From Seison nebaliae (Eukaryota), in contig JALJEE010002645.1 of NCBI GenBank assembly GCA_023231475.1, forward strand, positions 1 to 43,528: 43,528 nt of DNA, written 5' to 3'. A program made the position numbers and the translations under genes. Position 1 is the stretch's first letter. Every line of letters begins with the position of its first letter. Positions 3,988 to 43,336 of this stretch are shown here, piece by piece. Below the pieces are notes generated by a model. That model did no database searches and was not told the origin of the DNA. It was given only the letters and a program-made list of their open reading frames with translations.

Positions 3988-6900
3988 ATGAGTAGCCTAA
4001 TTAAAAATCAAATCGTCAAAGTTTTATCAAGGTTCCTTAAATTTCCTTTCTCTGCCATTTTAAACAATGAAAATCTTTTTTATGTTATTTGAAGATTTAC
4101 AAAAAATCTCTCAAATGATAATATCAATTTGTCGACAATTAAAGGCGAGGGTGTCCTCAACAATCTGGAATTGAATGAAGAAGTTCTTATGCACCTCATC
4201 GAATTACCGTTATGGTTGAGGATATCGAAAGCCGTTTGCAATAAAATTAATATAAAAGTTTCATCTTTTCAATAAAATTTCAATTGATTTCCAATCCCAT
4301 TAAAAGATCCAATGGTCTAAAGTTCATATTGTTCCAATTCAAATAGTTTTCTTTTTCTTTTACTTCTTTCTTCATTCCTTCCGGATTATTTAAGGGATTA
4401 GACGAAGTCACAATATTAATGGAGACATGTGACGATGAATTAAGGAAAGCTGATATCGATAAAACTTTAGAAGAATTGAAAAAGAATGCCCAAGAACCTC
4501 AGTTCATATAATCTTTATAATTATCATAATTTTATGCTTTCCATCAGTGCATATGCAATGGCTGACAGAATCGTAGATGGTATTCGTGTTTCCATCAATT
4601 CGGTTATCGTCAAATTGACAGCACTTTCATTCAGAGCATCCGTTGAAGTTTAAACAAAAAAATTTTAAGTTTAATTAATAAAAATATAAATTTTAAAGTT
4701 TAATCGAATTAATGTGGTGAGCACATTGCCAAATTGGACGACGACGGATGATATCAGAAAATCTCGATTGAAGAACTCACAATTGGAACAAGTTCTTCTC
4801 TTTAAGGTTGCCAATTACCAATATTTATTTTCAATTCAATTAAATTTCATTAATTTTAGGAGATCACATGGCAGACATGTCGAGTTGAAGCGAAATTGAC
4901 GAATAATGATATGAAGGAAGCGTCGTCATTTGGTGGGACGGCCCCGTTGAAACTGATAATGAACAGTTGTCGCATTCGAATAACGATGAAGAAAAGTTTA
5001 ACAAACTGTTCACTTTTGGGTAGTCGAGTAGCATTTCTATTCGATGATCTACTTTGGGTGATCACTGATTCTCAATTGAATTCTGTCGTCCTCGCATATG
5101 ACTCTCTCTTCTCATTGATAAAGAAAGCTGCGCCAGTAAAACAGAAAGCTGCCAAACAAAAACTCACACAAACATTACCACAATCGTCGAAGAAGAATCA
5201 ATCATCAAATCTTGATATTAATAATGTGATTTGTGACTTCGCCCGAAATCGATCATTTTTATCCTGGAGAAATAATTCCACGTTAAATTCAGCAGCAAAT
5301 TCTTCATCTTCATTGAAGAATGGAACGAATATCTCTCCAACAACTGGAGGAAAGAAGAATATGTCAACACAACAGGAAATGTTAATCTTATTCGAGAAAT
5401 ATAATGTTAAAGAAATCTCTGTTCATTTACTATTTAACACGATCGAACTTCATATTTGTGCAGATCAACGAGCATCAAGTTCATTTTTCATTCACATGAA
5501 AATCACTCTCAATTTAATAGATAATAATTTAATTGAAGGTGGTTCCATTCAAATCGTCATTAAAGAATTATGTGTAGATTATTATCCATATCATATTACC
5601 GGTTTTTATTCCAATTATATTATTCTCTAAGAAAATATTTATTTAAAATTTCTTCCAAAATTTCTTCCAAAATTTCTATTTTATTTAGGTCAATCTAAAT
5701 TACATTGGAATGATTATTGCGATTTATTCGATATGAGAGACGACTGGACAACGAAACTATTCAAAGATTTCCAACAACAAGTCCAATCGTCAATTCTTCA
5801 TTGTGAATCATTAGGTTTAACTTCTTAATGAAAATGAGAAGATCAACTGGTTTTCAGGAATGAAAATCGATCCGATTTTGAAATTATATTTCAATTACGA
5901 TCAAATACATCGAGATATTATCAAAGATCCAATGAGAAAAGAAGAGTCTGATAAGAATAATACAAATTTTTTCACTTATCTCGATATTCCTTCATTGGAA
6001 AGAACGTTGAGATCCATTCAATTGATGGAATCGTCAGTCGTCTGTCGAATGGATAATGTGATTGTTTATGAAGTGTCCACTGCTCAACGAAATATTGAAA
6101 GTCAACCAAAATGTTTATTTGAAGTGAATAGTGGTAAATATAATTTACCGAAAGCTTTCAACCAAATGTATATTCATTATACTGACTACTATTTCCCAGA
6201 AGGTGTCAATAATATTTCCAGTTTTATTATCTTTTTCGTCTCCTCTTCATCAATTCTATTCAATTCCATTAGCACCATCATCTGATATTTACGTCCATAT
6301 TAATCCGGTGAAAATAACATTCGATTATCTCTCCATTATTTGGTTGAATGCTTTCATTCATTCCACTATTCATCTTCTGGTTAGATTGATTCATTTATTC
6401 TAACTCTTTTACTCCCAATACGAATCTCATCAATATGTTCTGATGAATTTCCTCAATTTTCATTGTCATACTTTTTTTATTGCTTTTATTATGTTTGTTG
6501 CAAAGAAAAAATTTTCATGATAAAGATATTGAATAGGATCATATGTCGGAAAAGATCATGGATCTGTATGAAGATGAACTGAAAAACGATTTATCGCATG
6601 TAAGAATCATTTCTTCCTCATTTAATCTCTTTGATTTTGATAACCAAATTAATTTTATTAAAATTAACAAAATTTTTTTTCCTGCTAAAAATTTTTATTT
6701 TTTTAAATAATTTTCATATTATTTCTCAATTGTCAGGATAATTTATCGGTTGGAGAGGAACATTTGAAGAAATTGCCAAAAAAATATTTGGATCATGTTC
6801 ATATGAGATTGGAAGCAATTATGCCAAAAGTTTTCCTTTTTTATTCCATTCGTCTAATCGAAAAATTAGTTAATATTTTATGTGATCGATGGGAATTCGA

Positions 6901-9900
6901 ATGAGAAGGAATCGTCTAAGAAATCATCTTTCATTAAATATGCAGGAAGCGATATCGTTTCACCACCGATCGAAGGTGATCGTCCGACTGCTATGGAAAT
7001 CTCGATGTCTCGTTTAGTCTTGACAAATAATCTGAATGATTCAATGACATCCTGTGATCGTATATCTTTATTAAAAGCGATTCAATCAGTAACTAATTCT
7101 CAGACGATAATACCAAGTTCGCAGAATGAATGTGGATTGAAGAAGATGTCACCACATGTGTCGAGAGTAATTGCTCAATTATTCAAGAGAATCAATCGAT
7201 CTGATGTTGGTCTCTATCTGGCAAATGATTGTTTGATTGATGATTATTGGATGATATTTGATGAGATGTCAATCGATCAATTTAATTTATCTACAAATTA
7301 TCCGACTGATCTCGAACATTTCCAACAAATGGGATTCTCAGAAATTGATCGTGGAAAGGAATCGGTTCCCTTAATACTCTCACCATTCCTATTACAATTG
7401 AATTATGGTGAATTGAAATATATTCATGAAAATCCGTTGACGGAAGCGAGTTCGTTTCTGACAGGAATTCGTCATAATCTCCATATTCAAATGGATAAAC
7501 GTCAGGAGAATGCGAAAAATCAAACATTTCCATGGTTATTGCCTTCGTGTGAGAAGAAGGAATTGAGTGGAACAGTATGTGAATTTCCATCACTTTATTC
7601 TGTTCAATCATTTAACGATAATCAAGAATTAATTGCTAATAACATTGTCGCTTCTCCCGTCACTATTGCTAGTTATACATTCCCCTCATCATCCAACAAA
7701 CAGAAAGCCAATCTCTTCTCCGTCAAATTACATTATACAATCGGAACTAAATATCAAAAAAATGAACAAAAAAATTTCTATTATTCTTTCCATCCTCATC
7801 TTTTTCGGACGGATGGAAATAAAGATCTATGGTCCATTCATGCCGAACAATTCTGGATCGATTTCACTGGAGTTAAATTCATTCTACAACTTTTATGCTG
7901 AATTTCATTATTCGATTTTAGATTCAATCATCAATGTCAACAGTATTTGAGAGTTCATATCATTCGAAAAAGACGACTGTTCCATTCATGGAACCGGTCA
8001 ATTGTACTCTTTGGTCATTGACAATGACGAAAAGTATAAAAAATGAAAATCAAAAAATTATTTCAACATCTCCTCATACTAATGTAATGTTGATTCACGT
8101 TCATCCATAATTTTTCTCATAATTTCCATATTATTTCTATTTTTCATAAATAGTTTGATGAGAAAGAACAAGTATTGCAACCAAATAATTTGAATGATAA
8201 TGAAACGGATAAACATCAGTATGTTCCGTTGAAGAAGCCAATCCAATTAATTATTAATCATTTTGAGATGTTGTTCTTCAATCGACTAATGGAACATTTC
8301 GATCTATTGAAAAGTCAATTGGTAATCGACACGAATCATATTAATGAACATTATCAATCTACTAGGATAAATTTGAAAAATAAAAATAATGATAGTTTAG
8401 AATTTTATTTTAAATTGATAATTTCTTAAATTTTTTTCAGCTCAGAAATCCACAACTTCAAATTCTATGGTTATCACACAAATTCCTGATATTGATCTAA
8501 CGATATTATTCGGTCAATCGAATCCGAATGAACAAGTGGACATAAATGATCATGGCGATTGTCTCTCGAATAATTCGACAATGAAAAATCTAGTTAAAGT
8601 TGATGATACGACAACACTTTCAGTTGTCCCAATAAGAGGTTCACAATTTGATTTCGTTTAATTTCGTTTACGAACATTTCATAAAAAGAATGTAAAGAAC
8701 AATTGAATATTGTTACACGTGCGACATCCGAAGATAATTCGACAGCTATCCAAGCAGAAGAAAATGAGGAGGAAGATTTCGATGATATATTCGAACATAT
8801 CTCTCCCACACAACCAACAAACGAAGCGACTGCTGCTTGGGTACAAACAACAACGAATTATACAAAGAGAAGTGAAGTAGAGACGAAACAATTGACGGAC
8901 TTCGAATCAGATCCTCCTGATTTGTTGATTGACGATTCATGCAGTATGATCAGTGACTTTCCGATGATCATCGATATTGATGATAATGTATCGTTGTTAG
9001 GCCGAAGGAAAACAATGGAAAATCAGAATCTCATGTCGAACAATAGTTCCAATGCAAGGAATTTGAAAGACAGTGCCAAATTGGAAGTTCCAATTAGTAA
9101 TTGTGGAAAGGTGAAATCGGATTTTGAAAAAGTTTTATTTTCTTCTTTTTTCTATAATGATACTTAATACAATACTTTTATTTAACCATTTTTCATTAAT
9201 TTTTCTACAAAACAAAAGTTTCAATCAGTAACATTTCATGTTCGTTTATTGAAATGTCTAATCGTTGGAAATGAATATTTGAGTCGAATTAACATCCGAA
9301 TTGGCGATGTCTCCTCCGAAGAAGTTATCGACCGGAATTTATTCACCGATCTGAAAACACTAAATAAAAGTTTTTTTTCTATTTTTTTCATAAACTCAAA
9401 TACATTTTTTGGAAAAGATTTACGAACAAAAATTCGTTTGTTCGATAAGGAAGTTAATTTAGATGACGCGGGAATTATTATCGATATGTTCTCGCCGATC
9501 GACAAAGAATTATTGGAGAAGAAATTTCCTTATGCTCCAAATCCATTGATTGAGAGTGGAAGTATTATCGTCAATTTAGACCATTTGTCACTCCATTCTA
9601 TGAGAATGTCAACATTATTAGCTCTCTCCGATTTTGTGGAGGATGATAGAATTACCAAAGTTTCTCCAATGTTGTGTTCTCTCCAACAATTGCATATTAA
9701 GATGATTGTTTAATTTTCATTTATATATTTATATTTAATTAACTTTCTCTTCATTTTAGCCTGATACACAATCATCAAATACGATTAAATTGATGAAGAA
9801 AATGTGTCAATTTAAGAACCAGTTTATTCCGCTCATATATCCAGATCTCGTTTGTCATGTTCAATCGTTACAAGTGAAACGAAATGAAAATGGCGAATTA

Positions 9901-10233
9901 TTCATCACTCCATTGAGGAAGACGCCAAAATACATCCAGAATGTCGATGGATTTCTTACCGAATCTCTTAATTATCGATTAACACAAATGATGGAAATTA
10001 GTGGATTGAGAAGAAGTTCTCTCTTCAATCTCACTTCTAATATCAACAGAAATAATTCGAATCGTGCCAACTTATTAGAAATTGATAATGAAACAATCAA
10101 TGATTTATTCAATGATAAAACTGAAAAGATTAACAAAGAAATTATTAATTATCTTTTAAATCGATTGTTGAATGAAAGGGATGAAGCACGAAATGATTTG
10201 AAACAATTGAAGAATCTGATAAAGAAAAGATGA
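3988..10233 (+). CDS. BLTP3: Bridge-like lipid transfer protein 3 (UHRF1BP1/UHRF1BP1L family, chorein-N domain); 21 exons, ~1,660 aa
   Basis: Spliced N-terminus MSSLIKNQIVKVLSRFTKNLSNDNINLSTIKGEGVLNNLELNEEVL...VLLFKEITWQTCRVEA matches UHRF1BP1L (MAGIIKKQILKHLSRFTKNLSPDKINLSTLKGEG). Inferred introns: 4032-4094, 4258-4306, 4346-4394, 4502-4547, 4648-4698, 4807-4859, 5479-5520, 5602-5688, 5815-5857, 6221-6272, 6380-6536, 6600-6736, 6830-6869, 7872-7921, 8099-8153, 8395-8440, 8639-8688 (or 8697), 9132-9218, 9370-9417, 9708-9759. Exons sum to 4989 nt (in frame). Junctions in the 3' half are less certain. Confidence 0.9.
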
Positions 10234-10598
10234 TAATGAATATATCTCACTCTAAATAAACTTATCTACTGATAAAACAAACAAAAATTGAGAAAATAAT
10301 TTCTATAAAAAAAATTCTCAAAAAATTTATTTATTCCTCTTTTTGTGTCAATTTAATTTAACAGTAATCATAATTTTAATCTGAAATTAATAAAAATACG
10401 TTTATTGAAAAAAAACCTTTTCTTTCTCTATAAACTAAATTGAAATGGATATTGAATAAAAATTGAATTCCTTTTTTTATTTAATGATAATAATTTTTAT
10501 TTATGATAATTCGACTCGATCAATTGAAGAAATTTATTTTAACTGAATTTTATTGAATAAATTGAATTCAAATAAAACTGATAATAATTCATAAGATT

Positions 10599-11375
10599 TT
10601 AAGCGAAAGTGATAGCTTGTTGTTTCAACACATCAGCATACTGATCAAACAACGGTGGAACATATGTCGTTTCTGTCCACAAATCAGGAGTGAGATACGA
10701 ATATGTTTTTCCAATTGCCGCGTAAGTTGCTTTAGCGAAGTTTCCTAATGTGGCTGTGCAGCCACGAGTCGATGTATAAACATCTTCAATTCCTGCCATG
10801 GATAACAATTTTTTTGGAACTGGTGCCGATACGATTCCGGTACCACGAGGTGCTGGAATCAATCTCATCATTACTGAACCGCAATTACCGGTGACCTTAC
10901 AGGGAACTGTATGAGGATCTCCAATCTTATTTCCCCAATATCCTCGTCGGACGGGAATAATCGATAATTTCGCTAAAAGAATCGCTCCCTGAATTGCAGT
11001 GGCGACTTCTTTGGCACATTTAACTCCGAGTCCAACATGTCCTTTTCCATCACCAATGGCGACGAATGCCTTAAAACGAGTACGCTGACCGGCTCTCGTT
11101 TGTTTCTGGACGGGCATCACTTTGAGTACTTTGTCTGTCAATGTATCTCCCAAAAGTGTCTCGACAATTTTATCCTCTTTAATTGGAATCGAATAAAGAT
11201 ATATATCTTCAATCTTTCTAATCTTGTCTTCTTTCACCAAACGTCCCAATTTGGTAACGGGAACCCATTCTTTTTTCGTTTCACCACCTCGACGTCCACG
11301 TCGTCCTCGTCGACCATCACGTCCTCGACCACGACCGCGACCGAATCCTTCTCTTGCTCTACTTGGTTCAGACAT
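10599..11375 (-). CDS. RPS2: 40S ribosomal protein S2 (uS5), intronless CDS
   Basis: RG-rich N-terminus; [72 protein letters not shown]. Confidence 0.99.
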
Positions 11376-11439
11376 TTTATTAGAAAAGCCAATTCAAATG
11401 AATCTTTTTTATGTAACACGTGAAATTTTGTTGTTGAAA

Positions 11440-11453
11440 ATTTGAGAGAGAGC
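11440..11453 (-). promoter_or_regulatory. Candidate TCT initiator / 5' TOP pyrimidine tract of RPS2
   Basis: CTCTCTCTC on the minus strand ~70 nt upstream of the RPS2 ATG, as typical for ribosomal protein genes. Transcription start not verified. Confidence 0.4.
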
Positions 11454-12745
11454 ATTAAAATAGTTATTCATTTTTTAGTTATTAGAATTTTTGATACTTA
11501 AATTATAAGCTCAAATATAATATGTCAATATATAAATATTAAGCTTATCTGGTCTAGAGAGAGTGTTTTGTATATATCGTTTTTAGAACTAGATAAAAAA
11601 CTGAATATTAAACATTATAATTACGATTCTTAATATTATCCAAATAAAAAAAAATCATGATAATTAAAGTTCAATAAGAGATTTCACTTCTGATGAAAAA
11701 TGAATGGTTTAATAATTAATGATAGTTGAAGAATGTTGTTTAATCATTTATTTATTTTTAGTCAGTTTTATGTTCAGTTTAGGTGCGATGAATGATCATT
11801 TATAATATTATTATTGAAGAAATTTCTTCTATTGCATATTAATTTTGATTCACCATTCAGAAAGGAAATTTTTCTTGTAATCACCTTTCACTTTTTGAAG
11901 AGAAACAAAATTGATGAGTCTAGGGAATGGAATTGTTAAACGAACATATTATCAAAACTTGCTGTCTTATAATCAGTAGATAGTGGGGAAATGGTTATAT
12001 TTGTTAGTTAATTGCAAATATTTAACAAACTAGTAATAGGAGGCTTAATCAAAGCAATACGTTGGAAAGATGAACGTTCGTCGTAGAGGATAGATTCTCT
12101 TTTGTGCATCAGATTTATTTCCATTTAACCAAACAGATGGTTCACTCCATGATGGAAAGAAGATTGAAGAGGAGGAATAAATTTGTAGCTATATGCAGTT
12201 TTATCAGATTATTGTGTTGAAAGAATCTAATTCGATTTGAGATGACGGGTAATAATGATCCGTTAAATAGTAGGATTCTTTCTCTCTAATGGAATGAGAC
12301 TTCGCCAATTCTCTTGCAAGGTCGAATTGGAGTGTTGTGTTATTTAAGTTGTATATATAGAGCAAACGTTGTTAATACTCACTTCTTGAATAGTGGAAAA
12401 TGTGTAGGGAGAGTGCTCCATAAATTAAAAGGAAACTCCTAATGTTATTATTGTTGTTATTGTTGTTCTTCTAAGAATGATTGTTATTCTTATCTCTTTA
12501 TGCTGATTCATCTTGTCATGAATCAGAAGAATGATGGGAAAAATAATAAAAATAATTTTGGCTCTTTCCTTTTTCCTAAAGAATTTTAACTAATTCATTC
12601 CATATTTATCAATAGTATAATAAAAATAATTAACTATACAAGATCTTCCGTTCACTGTGTTCAAATCAATAAACATCTCGGTTCAGATAAAGTGAATTAG
12701 AGAGCACGTGAAAAAACTGTTTGTATATTAATCGAAGAAAAGGTA

Positions 12746-27500: not shown

Positions 27501-27533
27501 ACACTCACACTCACACACACACACACACACACA
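27501..27533. repeat. (CA)n microsatellite
   Basis: Directly visible. Confidence 0.9.
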
Positions 27534-30110
27534 TGCATGTAGACTCATGAACATACGTACCTTAACATACATCCATCTAAACGTAGCTAGCTAGCAATGG
27601 CTATGTAGCCAAATAATAAGTTTCTTCTCTTTACTCAAAGAAAAGAATTTTTTTCTATTTTTTATTGCTGAAAGTGTATTATCATCCACATACTTCCACA
27701 TATACATACACGCTGACACACACACACATCACATATTAATACCCTCATCATCACCATCATCCCCACCACCACTACAATTATTAATGAATTGAGATGCAAG
27801 ATGAAAAAATGAAAAAAATTGAATTAAACAAAAAAGAACATAGCAGACCCTCAGACATGTATCGTTCACTTCGACTCGAAGAGAGAACAATTTGTTTTTC
27901 TCTCGTAATTTTCAACTAAAGATTTCTCTTCACATTCCACATTCATTTAACTAGGAACATCAAACTACATATACATTAACATACAAGCACATCCCCTAAT
28001 AATTGTAAGTGAATAGATATATGTAATTCTTCAACCTCCTACAGGGCAACTCTTAGGACTTATAAATAACTCTAGAGATGTATATCATTATTTACTGATA
28101 TTACTGGCAGATCGGTGGAGAGGGAAAAACTCGGAGAACACTGAACATCTATAACGATATCAAATAAGTAGATCGAGACGGTCTCTCTCAATGCACGGAT
28201 ACTTGTACCATTGTGACAGTGTCTGAATGGAGTTTCCTTTTGTTTAGGACTTTTCTTAATTGAAATTGATCGGGAAATTAAAGAAAGTTCTTAAACAATT
28301 CTCACCTGAACATAATCCTTCTAATCAATATTCACTTTATCACACAATAAAATATCACTCGACTTATTTGATGAAAGTTGACCAACATTTTATGTGCAAT
28401 TATTACTCAACATTCCTTGTTTGGTACAATTACCTAAATTAATTGGCAAAGAAATATGTTAATTAATTAAAATTCAAACTTTATTTGAATTATTTCTAAA
28501 CATAAATCATTTATAATATCTAAAACGATAAAAAAACTTGTAAAGTCAACTATCATTTGTAAATTATCAATTAAGTAAATTGAACAATATAATAATTATG
28601 ATCAAGAATTATCTATTTTAAAATAAGAGCAAGAACAACACCATCTATGACACCATCTTATCCTTGAATATATAAAATTTCCGTTTGTATCGAAACGTAA
28701 TTAAATATCTGTTCTTTAGAAAACTAGTAAGAATCATATTACTGTTTTTTTTTCAATTGTAACAACATGGTTTTTAACGTAACAACTATTAACAGTCCAC
28801 GAAAATTAATTGTTGTCCTTAAATTTATTTTTTTCGATAAATTATAATTTTGGAAGATCAATCTTCATACCTATCTTCGTAGATCATTATAAAACATAAC
28901 AGAGTTATACATTTAGTTGATAACATTTTATCAAATTAAATTCCGACAATAACATTGCATTCGAACACCCACATGACTCATCTATTGATTAACAATTCAT
29001 AACAAAGCAGAAAATTTCTGGTAGATGAAATAATCTTGACACAGCAGAGAGAAAGACATCATGATTATAAAAAAGTTTTTGTTAAAAAAAAATTGAAATG
29101 TTGTCAATTTTTTTTCAATAACATTTTCGACTATTCAAAATTACGACATTATCTTGCCATCATCATACTTCAATACCAGACCATTCTTTTCCGTTTTATT
29201 ATAAGTAACTTAATTTTTAAGATTTTTTTCATGGAAACTTATTTCTAATAATTTTGCATTGGAGTTTAAAACATCCTAAAAAATTCTTGTCTTCGTTGCA
29301 CATCAATTTCTCTTTCTAGGAGGTAAAGAAATTTATTAAGTATTAGTTAATGAAGAGAAGAAAATATAAACAAAGTCGTGTGAAGTCTAAGGTTTAGTTT
29401 ATTATCATCAGAAAAGGTGAAGAAACATATCTAAAATCTTAAAATTTGGGAGGTATTTTAAATTTTGGCTGAAAGAATAAAATATTTCACTTATCTTCTA
29501 TTGGTAATATGTGAAAGAACTTCGTGCTGTTTTTCTTAAGAACAGTTTCTTACGCGCTATGCACATAATGATTAACACATTTCTTTTGCGTTCCATTAAA
29601 AGAAAGTAGAACAAATATTGAACAGTATCCAAAAAAATATTCTTGGATAATTTAGAATACATTTCAGACGATTAAGAATTACCTAAGTTTCAATTGGGAA
29701 TTTAACGAGGAATTTCTATTTCAGAAAGAAACGAAAAAATAGAAATTCGACGATTGATGGAATATATTTCGAAATTTATAAGTGAAAATTAGAAAGAATG
29801 TAGAAGAACAAATCATTACTCATATGATTATGATTGTCAAAGTAAGCAGTCTAAAAAAATAAAGACTAAAATCGAAAATTAGTTGAAGAGAATAATTAAA
29901 TATTTTTCCTTACTTGGACGGACAGTGATAAAATACATTGAATTTACAGTATTTTTATATTTACACATATTCACACGGAGGTTTTCCACACTCAGTTCAC
30001 ATAGGATATCAGGGCATATAAGAAATTTTACTTATTCCCTTCGATATTAATGTATCGTCGAAAGAGATACAAGTGCAACACCCATATACATACATCCATA
30101 TTACATATTT

Positions 30111-30210
30111 TCACATACACACATATATATATATATATATATACACAAGAACACTCACACACACACACACACACACACGCACACACGCACACATACACGC
30201 ACGCACACAC
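30111..30210. repeat. Compound (TA)n/(CA)n/(CACG)n microsatellite
   Basis: Directly visible. Confidence 0.9.
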
Positions 30211-33200
30211 ATCAATCTGAAGGTACGGAGATAACTATAGTTCGTTTCTTGTTTATATGTCGATGACGATTATTTTGAGTCGGTACATCAGACAGAAAGA
30301 TACCGTAATAGCAACAATACTATTTGTGGGTCGTAGAGAGTTATAGGTAACAATGAAGAGAAGATGGTGGCGTGTGCAAGAGTTTCTTTTTTCTTTTTTG
30401 AAAATAAATAGAGAGAGATGATAAAGATGGGTCGATTTTTCCAATTCGTTTCACTTTCTTCAATCTGCTATGAATATTTTACGTTTAATTATTCCTCTTC
30501 CTATTAATTTGTATGTTCCTTACTGATCCTCTTATTTTAATGGTAGAGATTTATATGATGAATTTGAGTCAATTCCAAAATTTGAACGTCCAATGTACAC
30601 TGAAAGAATAATTGTTTTCGATATGCTACAATGTGATGGGTTTCTATTAGAATTCTCGTGTACGATAATGACTGATAGGAGACATTAAAAAAGAAACAAA
30701 CAAAACAGGGAAATTGAATTGTTCAAAAAAAAATGTCGTCCAATTTAAGTAAGACTGTGTTAAATTTACTTAATATAACAATTAATTTTTATGCAAAATA
30801 AATACTTTTTCTTACATAACATTGCATTTTCCTTCTTGTTTGGTAGTAAGTAATGAGGCAAATTCATAAAATAGAGTTAAATAATTTGTCTAATAATTTG
30901 TTATTTGAAAAGAAATTGTAGAAGATATTACTTCGTCGAAGAGAATAATGTGAAGGATGGCGTAACATTTAATAAACTTAATTTTATTATGATAACCCCT
31001 TATTGCCATCTTTTAAACTATTCGACGTACAAGAAGCACATAATAAACAATGGAATATTAATAAAAGATAATAAAATAAAATTTAAAACTTGAAAAAAAT
31101 TGTTATAAAATGAATTGCAATAATATCCGACTGTACCTGATTCTTTAATGTGTGAAATTAACCGGTGAAATCATTAAATTTTATCCAATCTTCTCTGTTT
31201 GTTATAATGTTACTTAGGAACTTCTTCATTAGCATCTTCTCTTCAAATGCATTATTCTACACAGGATAATAGACGGAGAGTGTTTGATATTTAGTCAATA
31301 AAAATTGTTTTCGGTAAAATGAAAACATTCTCTAATTAATTGACTAATAAATTAATTATCATTAGATCAATAAAGTTCATTAAGAAAAATTTTAGGTAGA
31401 TTTGAAAACAACAAACATCATATTGTTAATGATTTGGAAAGTATTATCAAAAAAAATCGATTTCCATTTCGTTTTGGATTAAAAAACTTTTAAGACTTTC
31501 GTTCGAAATGACGAATAAAATAAGAGAACAAACAAGTAATAAGAGCGTCGTAGCAACAGCACGAATTGTTATTATTTAGAAAGTTGTTGATGTTAAAGTT
31601 TAGTCTATTATATCCGTTACCAAACTGTCCTGTTTGTTATTCATACGCTCTTCCATTCTTTGTCTGAACTAACCAGACTGGAAACGTTAAAATGCATTTT
31701 TTGAAGGAAAAAAACTCAACAAATAAAATTTCTGTGGTTCCAATTAATGAAAATATCTGTTCAAAAGACCTTAATATTACATAATCGAATGGAATATGAC
31801 TAACTGTAACGCCCAAACTATGTTTATGGCATTTACGATAATTATCGAATATTTGCGGTACAATTAATGAGATGTCAATGAAAAGTGCACAAGAGATAGA
31901 AGGAAAAGGTGTTGAGAAAGAATTTGCTTTCGTAAAACTTAAAATAAGTTGAAAGATAATTATTTTTTAGATTTGTGGTATGAGAAAGGAGAATCTAACG
32001 ATTATAATTTCTAAACCAGAATTTCTAAAGTAATTTGATAAGAAAGGAAGCAAGTAAATAATAAGTAGAAATATGGACATATATGTACAGTGATGTAAAC
32101 TTAAATAATCGAACAACACGAATAAATAATAGTCACTATGGAATGATGATGATGAATAAGTGAAGCAGATAAATTCTCTATTCTCTTCTTTGAGTTGACG
32201 TACAAGTATCTTCTCTTTACCGCTTTTGTTTCCTTTCAGCAATTCGTCGTCATCGTCATCATGACCATCATCTCACGTAGATTATGTTATTATTCCGTTT
32301 ATTTATATGATATTGCAATGAATGAAATGATTCATCTCTTCACTTCATTTCAGTTCATTCATTTTTTTATTTTTGCTCTCTTCGTCCTCGTTAATCAATT
32401 CCACAATTACTCTCCTGGAATGTATATTTCCCCGTCACGCAGTTACTGGAGCTACCGCAAGCTTCGATTTTTCCTTAAAAATTTCTTAACAGAAATACAG
32501 AAGACGTGTGACGTAATGAACATAGATAACTCACACACGTATGTCCAAACTGGAGAACACATAGACTCCACGACTTATGCGAATGTATAACTGATGAAGA
32601 AACTCAAAAGAAGGAGAGATCTCTATAGGCCATAATTAAAAGTAAATATCTGTATAGAATAATAAGTAACATTTGAAGGAAAGAACTTACAGTTAGTCAG
32701 ACAGTCAGTATATTGTGCAATCGACCGACTTGTACAGCTAATAAATTCATCCACAGGAAACATACACTAAACATATACCAATTGTACTATTTTGATATCT
32801 ATGAACCTTTCTTCCCAACTCCCAACCAACACAACAGCTCATAGAGTTACATAAACGATATGTTAATTTTTCTCCACTTGTACAAACATCGTCTCACCTC
32901 AATTCATCAACAATGAAAGCGTTACACTGATAAAATTAACATTGTCACATAAGTATAATATTCTTGTTCAAACGAAATTGTACTTCTTATTCATTAATAT
33001 CGATATTTTACTTATTCGAAGTGAAAAATGAAGAAAACTCCACTAGTATTTACTTACAAGAAAACTTGTTAGTCATTGTTCATATATGGTATAGAGCTGA
33101 GATGCATTATTATTATGAAAGTGGTTTCTTATAGAATGAGACTGATAGAACTGTATTTAACTTAAATGGAACAATTTGGAAAGTAGTATGTTGAATTCCT

Positions 33201-34799
33201 GGAAATGATATAATAAATAGTATTTGTTCAAAATGGCAATGTGACAATTTCCCGTGAGTGGTTCCATTTTATTGCCAAACTTACATAACTACGATAGATG
33301 GGAAAGTTATAGTTTCTTTGGGTGGAAGATAATTTCTGTTTTCGACTTGCACAAGTACCATTGGATGTCTTTGGACAGTCACTATAGATGAACTAACACC
33401 TTCGATATTTGTTTTACTTTCCTCTTTTTTTATGAGGAGGGTTAATAGAGATATTTTTGTAATATTTCTATTTATTTGAGTGATCGATGTGTGGAATCGT
33501 CTAATATTAAATGAAGTTCCATGACTTTGGGTGATATGGACAACTAAAATAAATAATAGTAAATACGTATGTGATTATGCAACTAATTTCATTGGAAACA
33601 AACTTTATGATGAACTACATATGAAATAGACGTGAATAGATAGATATATTCCTCCACATATGTGTACATTCGTTAATATAATCATTTCCCACAAAACTCT
33701 TGTGCATTATATAGATATAAGCTATATGGGAAGACTCTAATCTTCCCTCTTTTCATGAATTTGTTCAATATTTTTAATTGTTGTTTTCATCAATGTTCAT
33801 GCGTGCCTTACCGTTTATTTCTTATTAACATTTTCCCCTTCTCTCTTTCATTTAAATGGTGTTCGATCTTCTCAAATGAAAAACAAAAATGGAATAGAAC
33901 GATTTTCTAGTTCATTCAAATGACAAACAATTATGGTTGTTTCTACGAAAATATTTTTACTATGATCAAACATGCTAAATCATGTGTTTACTCGTTCATT
34001 ATCAAACTACATATTAATATATATATATTCTACTCGAAAAATAAATCTGCGGCATTATGTATACACGTGTAAGTTTGACTTATTAATTAACAATATTTAA
34101 TACTTATATATATAAATTCGATCATCTAGTTTCAATTCAAATTCTTACGATTAATAATCATTTAAAGTCATAAGGATTCCTGATTGTTACTCAATTTTTC
34201 CAGTTATGCAAAAATCTAAATTTTGAATTTTATCGATAATTAAACAGCACTTCATCAAACATTAATGCGACTAACCAGAGATCCGAATGCAAAAACTTAT
34301 CGATGATAAGTTATGATGCTTGTAATTGTAATCGGTGTCCTTCCAATTTTATCGTTCAACCTCATAATAAGATGAGTTGGGACACAGAATTTAAATTTCA
34401 ACGGTGACAAGTTTGTTAATCGCAATAAGGGGTTGGTTTGAACTCGAGATAGATAATGATTATTTTGAGTTAGAATGATAAGATAGTTTAAAGATCTTGT
34501 TTCAAAATACAATTAACCAATACGCCACAGAAATGAGACAAATTCAAGGTTGATATAAAGTACTTAATAAGTGCTATTTATTGACTGAATGGAATTCAAA
34601 AATTTACTCCCATTAACTTCATTTAAATCAAATTTTTATTGAACCACTTATTACAAGTGTTTGAACATCTTTCTTGCTTTTTGTTCTCTAACATTTTAAA
34701 GTCCAAATTTTTTAAAACTTTCATACGTTAAACATGTATAAATATTTATAGTAGCAATGGGGATTACTAATACTAACAATTAGATTGTGAGATTCCAGT

Positions 34800-36309
34800 G
34801 ATTTCACACAACATTATCGAAAAGTGTTAAATAAACCTAAGCCTATTACAACAGAAGGTTAATCCCATTTCATATTCATTCAACTATCATTTATCCATTA
34901 TAGACGGTTTTAATGATACAACAAGTGAGTTAGAAAATACACCAATGGAAACTGAAAATAATTTTCAACCGTTGGAAGTCTGTACAAACTCAGTTACCGA
35001 GAGTCATTCCGAACTAAATCGACCTGCAATGAATTTGACATTAAGAAATTTAGTTGTCGACGGTATGTCCATCTTCGAAGCAATGAGTTTATACCAAGAT
35101 AACACAAAATTGATAACAGTTAATAACCTAATAAAAATACAATAATTAAAGAAATTTTTCGTAGTTTCTGAAAGATTTCGGTATGCTGAAAGAGGACTTC
35201 TGCGAAGAACATAATATCCAAATGAAATTTCAAGTTCATTCTGGAAATCGGTTGATTTATAGATGTCCCAACGATAGGAAGACTCGTAGTTTGTTTACAG
35301 GTTAAGTCGTATAATAATAAAATGGATAATAAGATTTCTCGTATTTTTTAGGAAGTATATTCGAAAGGTTTAGAAATCTTTGGGGGACAATTTCTTATAC
35401 ATGTATTCTTGGTGTTGGAACATCAACCAATATTGTCTAAAGTTAAATTTCCAAAAAGAATATTGCGCCGATTGGAACAACTATTTCCTAGAACTATGCA
35501 CTGAATATGTGTTAAGAAAGTCAGACAAACAAATAGGTTTTTTGACAGTATTTTGATCATTATATTTCAGGCGGACTCGGATCTGTGGTAGAAATTGATG
35601 AAACTTTAGCAGTTAGAGCAAAACGATCAAAAAATGGAAAATATCGCCACCCAAAACAACATTGGTTATTCGGTGGAATAGATCGGGAAACAAAGGAAAT
35701 TTTTGTAGAATTTGTTCCGAATAGAACTACGGAAACATTGAGAGAAGTAATGTATCGGAAGATTAGAAAGGTTAACAAAATTTTCTTAAAAATGTTAGGA
35801 ATATTAACAATTTTCTTTTTAGGGAACTATTATAAATTCTGATCAATTTTCATCTTATCACTGGCTTCGTAATTCTACCGATTTTTCTTATAAAGTTTAT
35901 TTTTTTTTACTTAATGTTGCCTTACATTGTTAGGTAATAAATTATTCACAGAGGTTTGTTGATAAAGAAGATAAATCAAACCACACGCAGAATACAGAGA
36001 ATCTTTGGAGATGGCTAAAGAGAGATATGAGGAAAACTGGTTTATTTGAATATATAATATTTCAGAATTAACTTTCCTTATATAATGTAGGAGGCATCAG
36101 CATTAAAAAAAATTTTCAAGGCTCTGTAAAGCAATTGCGCGACGGGAAGTAAAGATACAAAAAATGGATTTTTTTCTAAGTTCATAGCAATTATGAAAAC
36201 TTGTTATCCTCCTTCATTTCAATTAACAGAAGAAGAAAATGAAATTTCGGAACATGAAATTTCCGAAAATGAAATAAATTACAATATTTCAGACCATGAA
36301 TATGTATAA
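34800..36309 (+). mobile_element. Merlin (IS1016/IS1595/ISXO2-like) DDE transposase, intron-containing and frameshifted (probable pseudogene)
   Basis: Spliced motifs: CADWNNYFLELC...IG|GLGSVVEIDET; WLFGGIDRETK; FVPNRTTETL; RK|GTIINSDQFSSY; VINYSQRFVD...HTQNTENLWRWLK (D, D, E present). Introns 34858-34903, 35119-35164, 35301-35351, 35537-35570, 35771-35822, 35895-35933, 36040-36090. Frameshifts near 35372 and ~36110-36150. TIRs not found by eye; 5' limit uncertain. Confidence 0.85.
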
Positions 36310-36974
36310 TTTATATATAAAATAAAAATTTCTTTAATTCGAGTCAATTTATCTTGAAGTTCTCGTAATAGCACCTTTTAAAATATGTTTTACTTTTTTA
36401 ACAATGCAGAAAATGTAAGCTCAAAATTTTTAATTATAAAATCGAATATCTTTTTTCTTAAGCCGAAATTTAACATTCTGAGCACACGATGATGTTCAGA
36501 ATTGAAAACTGGTCTAGTAAGATAAATTTCAAAAGAAAATACGACCAAGAAAACCATCGCGTTTTTGACCACTTATTCCAAACCTTTACCTTCTTTCTTC
36601 TACATGAAAGTCTATGACGTTGGATGGTAAATTTCCTTTGATTCTTAAATGTTCATTATAAAATCCTCAAAACTTTCGTTCTCCATATTTATTTTATTGG
36701 AAAAATAATTGAGCTAAAACTTTCAATACTTAACTTGCATTAAAATGTTCTTTGCTAAAAGTTCTTCTCCTCGGCAAAGTGTGAAAAAATGCGAAAATTA
36801 GATAGGAGAAAATACATGTATTTTCACAATGTGCCCAGGACTGTTCTGTACTACTAAAATTTCAAGTTCGTACAATAGCAGAGGATTAGAAAAGCATGCT
36901 CAAGTGCCTCGTGAGAAAAAGGAAAAGCAAGAGTTGAAGTGATAAATATTAAATAAAAAAAAAACAATAAAATT

Positions 36975-39380
36975 TTATTCTTTATTTGTTTGTATCTTTG
37001 TTCCGAATCTTCTTCAATGATTAATGGACTCTGTCAATCTCAACGGAACTTTCTTCGATGATGAACAAGAGCCATAACATGGCGACCACGCAGGCAATCA
37101 AGTGATACTTCCATTTGATGAAATAATGTCATTGATGATGTAGAACCGATCTATGATTCAGAAAGAAATAAGTTTATTGGTCAACGCAACTAACAAAAAA
37201 TTCGAAAAAGTTTCATACGAACGAAAGAACACAAGCGGAAAATACAATTTTACGATCGATTATAGAACAATAAGAAAGCAGAAGGAAGTAAGTCATCTTA
37301 AGAACGTTAGATCATATTGATTATAGTCAAAATTGGAATTGATTAAATTAAGTGCGGAATCGAGGGCAAGTCCGAAGAGCCACGGTCCAAGAATCGAACC
37401 CTGACGGACTCCACGATTAACTTGAAAAAGAGAGGATTGGACATTTTTTATTGAAACGGAACATAACGACTGCAAACACAACGTTTTTATGAATGACACT
37501 ATCGAATGGTGAACCCCACGAGAACTCAGGCAAAGGAGGGCCGGAAGTACATCGATGGAGTCGAACGCCCTCGATGCGTCTAGGAAGGATATATGAAGGA
37601 GGCGGTTCATTTGCCTATGATAATATATCAACGACCTCACGATGGCCAGACACGGATGTACTCCCCGATCATATCTTCTGTAGGCACATTGAGCTGTGGA
37701 CGAATAGACTGGGACTGAAATCTCTTTATAATTGCACGTTCAAAGACTCGAAGAAGGAAAGATGGGACACAAATGGGACGAAAAGAACTCACTAGAGAAG
37801 AATCCATTAACCGATTTTTAAGGATTGGAACAATTTTAAAATGGAATATGTCACAAGGAAATTCATTATTGATGAAACAATTATTGATGAAAGAAGAAAT
37901 TGTCGGTAGAAGACTGTCAATCGAGAACTGGGCTAACATGGGACAAACATTATCACAACCATGTGCTGTTGAACTCTTCAGTGACATTATGGCCGATCTA
38001 ATTTCATCATCTGAGAAAGAGAAGAGAGAAATATGAGAAGAAATTGGAGAAAGAGAAATAGAGAAGTTAGATGAGTATATGTAAGAAGCATAATGTTCAG
38101 TAAACTCATGAACAGTCGGAAAATTCGACTCATTCAGAATGGAAGTCGGTTTTCTCAAAAGCTTCCATAACGAGGAGTCCTTCGAAGTCCTATGAATTCG
38201 ATTGTATGTATCCCGTCTTCGTTTTCTCCGGATGGCTCTCCTAAAGTCGCGACGAGCCGACGATAGTTGAGCGAGGACCTCCAGAGATTTTTCGGAATAA
38301 TACTTGAGAAGTAGTCTTTTACATCTACGCCTCATTGGAAGAATATCGTGGAAGTTTGGAAGGGGTCTAGCCTTGAACCTAATACTAGTTCCCAACGAGG
38401 ATGGAAGTGACGAGAATGAAGAAAGGGAAAATGAAATTGAGAAAGAGGTATCATAGATAGAAGCAAGAACGTTCGACATCATATTAGACAACCAGTATTT
38501 CACAACTTCAGGAAGTCTGCAAAACGGACGAAAAATTCGAGTGCTTTTTCCACTAAGCGATCGATCGTGACCAGTCACCTCTTCCCGAGAAGTTTCTGGG
38601 TTCTGGAGTACGAAGTCTAATGTGAGTGGGAGATGATCCGAGATAGAAGCAGAGATACCGTCGTGAAGCAGAGAACATCCTATGGTGTCGATGGATACGG
38701 ATTCAGTAAAACCGCGGACGATCACCGAACGTTTCTTAGGAGCGATTGTCATCCCATCGATAACCTCAGAAGAGTTGCCTAAAATTGGAGGAAGACCGGA
38801 TGATTTCACGTTGCGGGAGCGAGGAGTATGTTTCGATATAGTTTGTAGATGAGAGGGAACTTCGGTCGAAGATTTCGTCTTTACGTTCTTCTTTTTACGA
38901 TTCCTCCTGATGTTCGACGGCACAAGATCACCAGTTTTAGTAGACTTGATGGGACCGAGACCAGACGGAACGGAATTGAGACTAGAAATATGTTGTGAAT
39001 TGGGGACGACCTCATCCTCTTGATGCATCGAAGAATCCGGAAGAATGGACGACACAATAGGAGGAGAGAGAGAGGTTGGATTAGAAGAATTATTCGAGCG
39101 AGAAATCTTCAGCGGGATATAATTCCACCCATCACCAGAAATAGCGTCAATCTTGCGCTCAATTTGACATAATTTCAACATTATTTGACCCAACGTACAA
39201 GAGGAAATAATGCTGGAACTCGTTGATGCATCCAAGATCGACGTTGAATTTGCTCGAGAACGTTTTAATGATGTTGTGACCGGAGGAGAACCACCGAGTG
39301 AACGAAGATCAACGTCCTGGGAATTGATAACTGAGGAGTTGGCAGAAGCCATTTGGTCAATTTGAATCAGCGAAAATGTA
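36975..39380 (-). mobile_element. Decayed non-LTR retrotransposon (LINE), copy A: ORF1-like region, APE endonuclease remnant and partial RT
   Basis: ORF 37637-39352 contains KKRSVIVRGF, ISDHLPLTLDF (APE C-terminal SDHxP), EIRSAIMSLKSSTAHGCD, KIVPILK and FRPICVPSFLLRVFE. The frameshifted ORF 37293-37640 contains FLDASRAFDSI and GVRQGSILGPWLF. No YADD found. AATAAA-rich 3' end near 36975-36990. Boundaries approximate. Confidence 0.88.
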
Positions 39381-39399
39381 AAAAAAAGTTGGAAATAAA

Positions 39400-40850
39400 A
39401 TTATTCACGTTTATTCAAATAATTCAAAAATATATATATAATTATTATAGAAAATATTCCAAAGAAGTATTTTGGAAGTTAAATACTAACGTTTATTTGC
39501 AACGATTGAAGATGGATCTACTGATTTCAAAACGGAATTCGTTCCAACTTATTGAACGACCTTTGAAATCATGTTGACAAGTGTCGTAGTGTCCCCATTG
39601 AGAATAGAAGTGAACATTGCTTGCATTGCTGCTTGTAGATTCACAATGAACTTCATTGGAATTTTGAATGACGATTGCTTCATGCTACTACACGGTCCAT
39701 TAGTTTTTCCGTCAACACCGAACTGAGCAACACCGAGCAATATAACATTATCAAGAGTAAAATCCCATGACCATGAGCAAAAGAGTAAACGAAATTAATT
39801 TTTTTAATAATTAATTATTCCATTAAGATATATTCTATGAATCGAAGGAATATTTCTTAATAATACTTGTTCTGGAACAGGGACATTTTTAAAATTATTT
39901 ATCTAATTTATGAATTTACCAATTTTCCGAAAAATCATAATTTACAACACCAGAAGCGTTATGATATGTAAGTCGCGAAGCGAGAGGAATGTTGGAGAAC
40001 GAACGAACGTCAGCATTTCGATTCGTTTATAGTAATTCCTCTTTCAGCAAGAAGACGAGATGTACGTAGATAGGATTTCTTCGAATAGCGAAGGGAACGA
40101 TGCATGATCATGCAATCGTCAGCACATGCCATAACATGTGGAAATAAGAAATTGCCAAAGGCGATACTATTACCTTCGTTAAGTTCGCGGAGGACGCCCT
40201 CAATAGCCAATCCAAATAACCAGGGACGTAGAATCGTACCTTGACGGACTCCTGAATTAATTTGGAAGGGTAGCGATCACCGTGAACAACGCATCCAGAG
40301 GAATTGCAGGAGAGATGTGCGAGAAAAATTGAGGATAGAATATGGGACGTGTGGACGCACAAGGTAATCAAAAACATAAGAAATGTTAACGGAATCGAAT
40401 GTCTTTGTAACATCAAGGAAGAGAAAAATGTAAGGAAAATTTCATTTCCTTGGCAATACTTATAGCCCAACGGAGAATAGAGGATAGGTGACATGACATG
40501 ATGATCGATAAGCGAATTGGTAGGATGACGAAAAGAGTACATTCCGATATCGGATCAAAATGAGGTTCTCGAATACATTCAGTAGGAACGAAAGAGTGCA
40601 GATCGGTCTATATGAAATTAGCGAGGTTTGATCAATATTCGGTTTCTTCAGAATTGGAATAATTTTGAAGAGGAGCGAGATGGAAAAGAACTGATGATGA
40701 GAAAGAATCAAATTTACGGAATCAGTAAGGCCGGTTACGAGAGATGGAAGTAAGTGTTGCACTAATTTAATGCAAACATTATCGAAACCGTGAGCCTTAG
40801 TACCGTCGAGTGCACCAAGAATCTGTGCACTTTTAAGTCCGCTCAAATAC
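39400..40850 (-). mobile_element. Decayed, 5'-truncated LINE, copy B (RT fragments), related to but diverged from copy A
   Basis: KAHGFDNVC; KIIPILKK; SYRPICTLSFLLNVFE; YQFAYR; GVRQGTILRPWLFGLAI; MACADD; GITINESKC, spread over several frames. The 3' limit is approximate. Confidence 0.85.
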
Positions 40851-41228
40851 CTGCATATTTTGCGCTATAAATTGCATGAAAAGTATTGGTTCAGTATTTC
40901 CAAAATCGTTGAAAATTTACACATGGGGGTTTTCGATGGTGACGATTTTAAAAAATCAAACCACGATTTAAAATAGTTTTTTGAATAAATCGACTTTGAA
41001 TAAATTTTGTTTAATTATAAATGAAAATTTTTTAAATTCTCAATTTAAATATTCGTTGTGGATGTTGCAAAATAAATAATGAAACCGTGTATAAAGCTTT
41101 CATAAAAATGAAACAAATAATAAATAAATTGAGTTATCAGGAAAAAATTTGGAGAACCATAGTCGATATTAATGAAAGTATAATTATCAAATTCAGTTTA
41201 TAATCCATTTCTTTCAATGCAATTATTC

Positions 41229-43336
41229 CTAATTTGCTAGTTGTTCTGTAAGGTCGTCGACTTCAGCATTCAATTTCCTTATTTGTTTCCTTAGCGCTTT
41301 GTTATCGTTTTCATAGTCTTCGAAAATTACTGCATGATCTTCTATATGAGATATCGCCTTCCTCTTTTTTTTCTTGAACTTTCCTGTAGCGTTTCTTATG
41401 CTTTCATTAAGTGTTTCTATTATATTTACTTTTTTAGTTATTTTTTCAGTTTTCGCTTGTGCAGTAATTTCCAAACCGATGATTTCACCTTCAATATCAA
41501 GAATATCGCTAAGTAAATTTCCATTTACAAATATTAGGTTTGTATTTTCAGAAATTAGTCGTTTTTCTTCTTCATCTTCTTCGGTTTCTGTGTTTTGGAG
41601 TGTTATTATACTTTTCTCTTGTTCATTTATTGTTGATCGTTTTTCGATTAACTCTGTACTTTGGCTGTCTACTGTTGCTTTTAATCCTTTTAGTTTCACA
41701 ACCTCTTCGTTGTTCTCCATGGCTAATGATTCTATTCTTTTCTGTTCTTCATTTACTTCGGCTTCTTTTTGTGATAGTTTCGTAGATAACTCATTATCTG
41801 TTTCGTTATGTGATTGTTGTTCTTCACTTAACTCGTTTTGTACAGCGTTCAAAGCTCTTTCTTGATCATCTTTTAATTCAGCTTCCTCATCTTCCAATGA
41901 TTGTACTTGTTCTTCCAGTTGCCTAAAAAAAGAAAGGTGTAAAATATAATTACAGGTTTCCTTCACAAAATTCTATGTCGGCTTAGTAAATGTTATGTAT
42001 TGCTAATACGTATAATTTTTTTGTTTTACATATAAAAGCCAAATATGAGAAAAGATATTCAACCTGATAAATTCAGAATAATCGGATACCGTTTGTGTCG
42101 ATGGTTTTAAGGTACTACTAGTACTTGTTGCTTTCTTTATAGATGAGGTGGAAGTGGATAGAGATGTAGATGTTGAAGTAGTTGTGGATGTTGAAGTAGT
42201 TGTGGATGTTGAAGTAGATGTGGATGTTGAAGTAGATGTGGATGTTGAAGTGGATGTAGACGTAGAACCAGATGTGGAAGTGGATGTTGAAGTAGATGTA
42301 GATGTGGAACTAGACGTGGATGTAGAAGTAGACGTGGAAGTAGAGGTGGAAGTAGATGTAGAGGTGAAAGTAGATGTGGATGTTGAATTAGACCGAATAG
42401 AACCAGAAGTGTACGATATGGAGATAGGCGAATTGGTAGATATAGAAATGCCAATAGAAGAAGAATCTAAAAATTATTTTAAAATTTAAATATTTTACGA
42501 ATAAACAACTAACCAAGAGAAGTTTCGTCAAATTCTATTTCTGGCATGCTTGTTGACGCTATTTCATCCGTTTTAAAATCCATCGTGCTCGGAATCGTTT
42601 CAATTTCACTCGTTGATAATTCAGAATTAATCGACGATGGTAGAGGTGAAGTTAAACCTAATTTCAAATAAACACAATATTACTCTCATATCAATCGGAA
42701 AAATTTCCCTAACTTAAGAGATTTGTACAATATTCAAATGGATCTATAGTCGAAGAAATTTTGGTCGAACTATCTGCCATTATAGAAGTTGATTCTTTTG
42801 GTATGTCAACTGGTTCTTCATCTGCTGGTGCTTCGATTATAAAGTTGTCTGTAGTTGCTGGTGGTGATGTCGTGTCTGTAGACAATTTTGGATGTTTCGA
42901 TATGGTAAAAATAGAAAAATTTGTAGAATTTGACGTCTGATTTATTGATGTTAATGTTACATCTATGCTGAATATTGAGAATAATTACTTAATTCTTATG
43001 TAATTAATCAAATAAATTTGTAACGTTGATTGTATTGTAGATTTGCCAGTAGTCGTTGTATTAGTTGAATTAACCGGAATAGTAGTTTTGGTTCTAAAAA
43101 GAATATCGAAAATTGGAAATTTAGTTCTTCATATAATATTAACATGCTAGCTGGCTCATTTGCATCACTGGAGAATAAGCCAGTTGTTAGAGCTACGGTT
43201 GGTGCTATAATGATTGTAGCCAAAATTAGAAAACCGATTATGATCCAAACAACAGGAAGAATTTGTTTCTGTCTGAAAAACAAAATCTCATTTTTTATTC
43301 TTATAAAAGTAATAACTTTTTTTCCTGAGACGCCAT
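41229..43336 (-). CDS. Orphan type II membrane protein: short cytosolic tail, TM helix, Ser/Thr mucin-like stalk, C-terminal coiled coil; 7 exons, 570 aa
   Basis: MASQEKK|QKQILPVVWIIIGFLILATIIIAPTVAL..., then S/T-rich exons, an (ST)n repeat and an acidic heptad-rich last exon. Introns 43273-43316, 43094-43143, 42968-43024, 42658-42713, 42467-42513, 41923-42063. Exons sum to 1713 nt, in frame without stops. Confidence 0.8.
42140..42390 (-). repeat. Degenerate hexamer coding repeat (TCN ACN)n encoding (Ser-Thr)n
   Basis: The + strand shows gatgttgaagta/gatgtg units. The minus-strand frame reads STSTSTST with free third-position variation. Confidence 0.9.

Follow-up and report, generated by a model that had tools for sequence, protein, structure and literature searches.

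Few RNA contacts of eukaryotes are as strongly conserved as the pairing between the U1 small nuclear RNA (snRNA) and the 5' splice site, or donor, since a change in it would be expected to damage thousands of introns simultaneously. The closest described departure is that of Entamoeba, in which GUUUGN makes up 96.9-98.5% of donors, the U1 arm reads ACAAAC and U6 is unchanged; a separate U1 change is found in Mastigamoeba (bioRxiv 10.1101/2022.06.08.495308). Here we describe the donors in a 43.5-kb contig of Seison nebaliae (hereafter the window, i.e., the whole stretch of DNA that was analysed). Seison is a seisonid rotifer that lives on Nebalia crustaceans, with a genome of ~46 Mb and a GC content of 31.9% (PMC8351084). 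Animal donors usually begin with GTA or GTG; those of the Seison contig begin with GTT instead, in 46 of 47 introns.

Like Entamoeba, Seison has a near-fixed +3U in GT-AG introns, and the usual +3 purine is gone. The original prediction, made from the letters of this DNA, was of a rewired donor code; its donor pattern is confirmed here, but such a code is not unprecedented in eukaryotes, since Entamoeba already combines a fixed +3U with a U1 that has co-evolved. The two cases also differ. Entamoeba is intron-poor and keeps the strict hexamer GUUUGU, with +4U, +5G and +6U fixed, whereas Seison is an intron-rich animal with alternative splicing, nearly free +4 to +6 positions and a preference for A over G at -1. 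The strict GTTTGT hexamer occurs at only 3/47 donors (14146, 22758, 33603), and intron density is not low, with 19-20 introns in one gene, BLTP3, and 47 donors in 43.5 kb. Two other systems are comparable in part. The left-handed (exon-side, U5-type) class of animal and plant donors resembles Seison in carrying its information upstream of the GU and in having a +5 that is usually not G, but it is one of two classes and has -1G (-2A/-1G in human), as set out in PMC11842720, whereas in Seison nearly all donors are of this kind, with A predominating at -1 and U at +3. The +4 A/U switches of Saccharomycotina, associated with METTL16 and SNRNP27K, are likewise a shift of one donor position, there across a whole lineage; however, they are fungal, lie at +4 and occur with unchanged U1 and U6 (PMC10581693), while Seison has +3 fixed and +4 free. 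In short, the Seison case works like Entamoeba at +3 but is not of the same type: there is no strict hexamer and no intron loss, and the organism is an animal.

All donor counts come from this one Seison nebaliae contig. By source, 25 of the 47 donors derive from deposited proteins, 14 from transcripts and eight from our own models only (one in an SLC7 gene, seven in a Merlin-like transposase copy). The deposited models, for BLTP3 and a PDZ-LIM gene, were made by others and not in this analysis; the two BLTP3 isoforms were mapped exactly, splice dinucleotides were not assumed, and every placement that yields the protein was listed. The RNA evidence is a published table of GMAP alignments that place Trinity transcripts on the genome (PMC8351084, Additional file 2), with at least 28 rows for contig k141_3344, whose coordinates are the same as those of the window. 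Each GMAP gap was slid along the sequence to test alternative GT..AG placements.

The 44 donors of the original prediction are all present, 43 of them GTT, across six loci and both strands, and the bases it gave at eight example coordinates are found at all eight. The GMAP rows supply three further GTT donors, at 2707(-), 17059(-) and 33603(-), so that the contig has +3T in 46/47 introns, +3A in one, and +3C or +3G in none. Deposited protein models give GTT at 24/25 donors (BLTP3 and PDZ-LIM together). Transcript gaps in the published alignments give GTT at 14/14, and each of these gaps has a single GT..AG placement. In the window, GT is followed by T in 41.5% of cases on the plus strand and 37.6% on the minus strand. 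Taking a background of 0.42, the probability by chance is p ~1e-8 for 24/25, p ~5e-6 for 14/14 and p ~1e-16 for 46/47; without the eight model-only donors, 38/39 have +3T (p ~1e-13). The +3T share has a one-sided 95% lower bound of 0.90, provided that the introns of the contig represent the genome fairly.

The choice among available sites points the same way. In the two annotated genes, GTT sites are used at 24/137 and other GT sites at 1/191 (Fisher p 4e-9). Across six gene bodies (a slash marks the junction, and lower-case letters are exon bases), R/GTT is used at 37/139, Y/GTT at 6/169 and all other GT at 1/492; use of R/GTA and R/GTG together is 0/168, and of R/GTA alone 0/83. An in-frame alternative GT lies within 30 nucleotides (nt) of 19/44 donors. 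Textbook-like sites in exons are left unused at 14480 (cag/GTATGT), 34925 (caa/GTGAGT) and 21511 (aat/GTGAGT). The used aaa/GTTTTA at 9132 is preceded, in the same frame and at a distance of 21 nt, by an unused aag/GTGAAA.

Could the pattern be a local or technical artefact, arising from a composition rich in AT, from biased gene models or from something peculiar to the contig? T makes up 45% of intron interiors, biases can grow when a gene finder is trained on its own predictions, and the data come from a single contig. Against this stand the transcript-derived donors, all GTT with one placement each and three of them outside coding models, together with the agreement of nine transcription units on both strands. 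In addition, four GTT junctions are fixed by the continuity of the protein: 4032 by the BLTP3A_B profile, 13972 by LIM, 22390 by zf-MIZ and 15959 by a solved SLC7 chain. We therefore regard an artefact as very improbable. The claim that the GTT excess does not come from biased selection of junctions is borne out, since deposited proteins, transcripts and profile-fixed junctions agree. The observation is confirmed as real, on stronger support than the original prediction had, and a near-fixed +3U in this contig is supported.

Individual genes contribute different kinds of evidence. In BLTP3, 19 of the 20 distinct donors are GTT and each intron has exactly one GT/GC..AG placement; the Pfam BLTP3A_B profile is continuous across the first junction. 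The sole non-GTT donor of the contig, 6600 cat/GTAAGA, closes a 63-nt cassette exon of this gene. In the PDZ-LIM gene, the LIM profile is continuous at 13972, and the last exon starts with the unused GTATGT site at 14480. In the SLC7 gene, model residues 170 and 177 align to residues 169 and 176 of the solved SLC7 chain, and this collinearity fixes the donor at 15959. Among the GMAP rows listed, SLC7 has no sense transcript; its intron is retained in both rows that span it. One of these two transcripts is spliced on the opposite strand, and both are probably antisense. A spliced transcript is antisense to the whole SLC7 gene (15369-17256, minus strand). Fragments of ZMIZ transcripts extend to 17453, immediately upstream of it, and this transcript may thus represent a long extension of the ZMIZ 3' end.

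The five ZMIZ introns match transcript gaps D50, D58, D50, D51 and D49 in place and length, and the zf-MIZ profile runs over positions 1-24 and then 26-47 across the junction at 22390. The ZMIZ model has ~2,420 residues, and two exons of >3.3 kb, low in complexity and rich in Q/N/S/T, flank its five closely spaced introns. In the mucin-like gene, all six introns match transcript gaps in place and length. Within its Ser/Thr repeat (42064-42466, minus strand), transcripts are 36 bases longer than the assembly (I36), for which a collapsed repeat or a length allele is offered as the reading. The transposase copy, which we take to belong to Merlin, has a weak DDE_Tnp_IS1595 match (E 0.006, below the cut-off). 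Its junctions at 34858 and 35119 are common to an annotated paralogue on another contig, KAI3383566.1; the five junctions without a paralogue match, particularly 35301 and 35771, may have a non-GTT alternative. No transcript of BLTP3, PDZ-LIM or Merlin is among the GMAP rows listed for contig k141_3344. Of the introns added from transcripts, that with donor 2707 (minus strand) uses two acceptors, 2472 and 2457, which are 15 nt apart; the nearby 466-codon frame (756-2156) has no Pfam family above the cut-off. Elsewhere in the window, the uS5/RPS2 coding region (10599-11372, minus strand) is intron-free in an otherwise intron-rich contig, and several broken open frames between 37293 and 40864 resemble, by eye, non-LTR (long terminal repeat) reverse transcriptase.

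Table 1. Genes, introns and donors in the Seison nebaliae window.
Feature	Position	Strand	Basis and details
BLTP3 (UHRF1BP1-type) gene	3988..10233	+	Deposited KAI3379990.1 and KAI3379989.1 (two isoforms; SNEBB_000231), mapped exactly
BLTP3 GTT donors, first part	4032, 4258, 4346, 4502, 4648, 4807, 5479, 5602, 5815, 6221	+	
BLTP3 GTT donors, second part	6380, 6830, 7872, 8099, 8395, 8639, 9132, 9370, 9708	+	
BLTP3 cassette exon, 63 nt	6537..6599	+	In one deposited isoform, skipped in the other
PDZ-LIM gene	12746..14563	+	Deposited KAI3379992.1; GTT donors 13051, 13387, 13972, 14146, 14437 (5/5)
SLC7 amino-acid transporter gene	15436..17032	+	Open frame; single 43-nt intron 15959-16001, donor GTTCTT
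Intron of transcript antisense to SLC7, 50 nt	17010..17059	-	Donor 17059 tta/GTTACC; TRINITY_GG_3704_c0_g1_i1; only GT..AG placement on the minus strand
ZMIZ gene	18794..26323	-	GTT donors 23003, 22758, 22586, 22390, 22264 (5/5)
Merlin/IS1595-like transposase copy	34790..36150 (outer ends approximate)	+	Modelled from motifs; frameshift near 35377
Merlin modelled GTT donors	34858, 35119, 35301, 35537, 35771, 35895, 36040	+	Seven short introns
Mucin-like membrane protein gene	41229..43336	-	GTT donors 43316, 43143, 43024, 42713, 42513, 42063 (6/6)
Intron upstream of long open reading frame 756-2156	2457..2707	-	Donor 2707 aag/GTTTTT; TRINITY_GG_3700_c0_g1_i1 and i2
Intron, 60 nt, of transcript 32897-33891 without assigned gene	33544..33603	-	Donor 33603 aaa/GTTTGT; TRINITY_GG_3702_c0_g1_i1

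The introns are of the U2 type in their ends and in their removal from RNA. Donors are GT in 47/47 and acceptors AG in 44/44 plus the three added introns; 14 donors are seen as gaps of assembled transcripts, and the other 33 come from deposited proteins or models. U12-type introns have a fixed RTATCCT donor, and this motif occurs at 0/47 donors. The standard animal consensus GTRAGT is not followed either, with a +3 purine in 1/47, +4A in 19/47 and +5G in 9/47. Acceptors are TAG in 25, CAG in 13 and AAG in 9 (n=47). Introns are short (median 50.5 nt, n=44), and a YTRAY branch-point motif is no more frequent than in shuffled sequences (13/47 vs 14.3).

The donor signal is (A)R/GUU with a faint +5G. 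The original prediction made +3U the determinant of the donor: the change is indeed near-fixed at +3, but it is not confined to +3, as A exceeds G at -1 and positions +4 to +6 are nearly degenerate. Composition at +4 is A19 T18 C8 G2, without enrichment (p 0.20), and +6T, at 26/47, is not enriched either (p 0.11). The +5G, in 9/47 donors against 7% G in introns (p 0.005), is weak, and it leaves the residual signal canonical in register; six of these nine donors also have +6T. The +5G differs by gene, being found in 2/20 BLTP3 donors versus 6/14 in the transcript-derived set, in which +4A occurs in 9, +6T in 9, and the modal form is GUUAGU. Two displaced registers were tried. A register shifted by +1 (GTTNNG) is rejected, as +6G is found in only 3/47 (p 0.65); one moved four bases into the exon is unsupported, with neither -3T (p 0.90) nor -4G (p 0.83) enriched. 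Used GTT donors pair slightly better than unused ones in the exon-shifted register (5.36 v 4.70) and in the normal register (5.64 v 4.86), and compensation between -1 and +5 is a trend only (3/9 v 4/38, p 0.12).

On the exon side, -2 is A in 31/47 donors and -1 is a purine in 40/47, with A in 24 and G in 16. These preferences bear on the possibility that U1 is standard and that +3U is imposed by altered proteins (U1C, the LUC7 family, PRP8 or others) with a preference for left-handed donors, whose information is exon-side. Several observations in other lineages fit such a mechanism: the left- and right-handed classes of donors are determined by LUC7 subfamilies, whose distribution among lineages varies together with the composition of the donors (PMC11842720); the presence of METTL16 and SNRNP27K tracks the +4 preference without snRNA change (PMC10581693); and U1C of Entamoeba is highly diverged (bioRxiv 10.1101/2022.06.08.495308). 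In Seison itself, ~35% of metazoan BUSCO genes are missing (PMC8351084). In the accounts consulted, however, the positions shifted by LUC7, METTL16 and SNRNP27K are -1, +4 and +5, not +3 (PMC11842720, PMC10581693). Moreover, +3U mismatches a standard U1, for which R/GTA should still be the better site, yet none of the 83 R/GTA sites is used. We consider altered proteins with a standard U1 unlikely, though deserving a substantial share of belief.

The excess of A over G at -1, which suits a U-rich U5 loop better than C9 of U1, and the lack of enrichment at +4 and +6 would also fit a donor chosen by U5 and U6. Here U1 pairing would be relaxed, shortened or lost, U5 loop 1 would read A(-2) and R(-1), and U6 would fix +3U, by G-U wobble at ACAGA G or through a changed base. 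GUUUGU can pair with an unchanged U6 ACAGA at +2 to +6 (Roy and Bowser, bioRxiv 10.1101/2022.06.08.495308). Cyanidioschyzon merolae does without U1; however, U1 loss is known for this intron-poor alga, whereas the Seison contig has many introns and alternative splicing. If the partner were G, +3C should be admitted, but it is absent from the 47 donors; and if U6 made the selection, a stronger +5G than the weak one seen would be expected. We judge a donor choice by U5 and U6 to be unlikely, slightly more so than altered proteins.

The donor pattern suggests that intron starts are now read differently by the splicing machinery, the U1 RNA being the component most likely to have changed. Intron +4 is opposite U1 position 5 (PMC10581693), and therefore +3 is opposite U1 position 6. 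A U1 with A at position 6 is favoured because U alone is accepted at +3 and because Entamoeba provides a precedent; an adenine partner suits +3 since adenine selects U alone, in line with the missing +3C and +3G. That U1 with A instead of U at position 6, facing +3, underlies the GUU donors, and does so likely genome-wide, is a proposal that we see as evenly balanced between right and wrong. A changed U1 5' end would be a reasonable lead, for which a direct precedent exists. The core of the pairing by the altered arm would consist of A(-2), G(+1), U(+2) and U(+3). The preference for A at -1 would have to come either from a C9>U change in U1 or from donor selection by loop 1 of U5, which is U-rich, and +4 to +6 would keep a faint canonical trace only, in the form of +5G. 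Complete truncation of the U1 arm is a less favoured option, since +5G is still enriched. Low donor information could be made up for by intron definition, given the short introns (median ~50 nt). A GTA donor would be weak in a system that reads GUU, which would fit the skipped BLTP3 cassette exon.

It is important to note that several points weigh against a changed U1. The change from U to A at position 6 alone explains neither the weak +4 to +6 nor the -1A, and +5G is scarce in BLTP3 (2/20). Most of the donor shifts that are known did not involve U1: neither U1 nor U6 varies across the Saccharomycotina +4 switches (PMC10581693), and Thecamonas and Mamiellales keep a standard U1 arm (bioRxiv 10.1101/2022.06.08.495308). 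The argument from the cassette exon rests on one site, and the data on one contig. Among U1-like matches from 129 metagenome loci, in 14 of 64 parts scanned, 0/134 have A at position 6.

A search with Rfam found no snRNA within the 43.5-kb window. In GC-rich metagenome contigs, U1-like genes with a changed position 5 were seen at L053 1402-1571 (minus strand, A), L089 301-470 (plus strand, A) and L091 301-470 (plus strand, G). Judging from these genes, the change would match GUAUGU donors (A) or GUACGU donors (G), and further U1 compensation is possible there. Clusters of snRNA genes lie at L073 514-2492 (U5, U1, U2) and L034 1-2614 (U2, U5, U1, U3, 5S).

Two distinct lineages are present among the sampled Seison nebaliae animals (PMC8351084). 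The DNA runs contain low-depth contigs that are ~85% alike in exons, which fits a second Seison lineage. Two of four low-depth joints start at annotated donors; the alignment reaches 9135 (GTTT) and 14148 (GTT) and then diverges. This hints, from two sites only (9132 and 14146), that GTT is common to both lineages.

No report on the donor consensus of Seison or rotifers, or on a near-fixed +3U in any animal, was found in the literature searched; most subscription journals were outside its coverage, and intron databases may contain the pattern unremarked. In the genome paper (PMC8351084), "splice" occurs once, in another context, and "snRNA" never.

The wider reading is tentative, and we place it somewhat below an even balance: a genome-wide swap of the 5' splice-site code may have taken place in an intron-rich animal, in which U1 with A opposite +3, and perhaps U opposite -1, reads AR/GUU, ancestral introns were converted in place and not lost, and GUAAG is now a weak, regulated donor. 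Introns at several ZMIZ and BLTP3 positions that may be common to other animals would be candidates for such conversion. The reading bears on an old question, namely whether introns are lost when a splice code changes genome-wide or stay in place and co-evolve with it. The described case of a compensated +3U is an intron-poor amoeba; near-fixed +3U in an animal rich in introns makes the question directly testable. For Seison nebaliae there are a public genome, RNA-seq data and two diverged lineages, and the time of the switch can be narrowed by comparison with acanthocephalans, bdelloids and monogononts. A practical consequence is that Seison genes would be scored wrongly by splice predictors whose training data come from other animals. 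If the reading is true, Seison would have a natural suppressor-U1 genome and, as far as the literature searched extends, would be the first case of U1-donor co-evolution in Metazoa.

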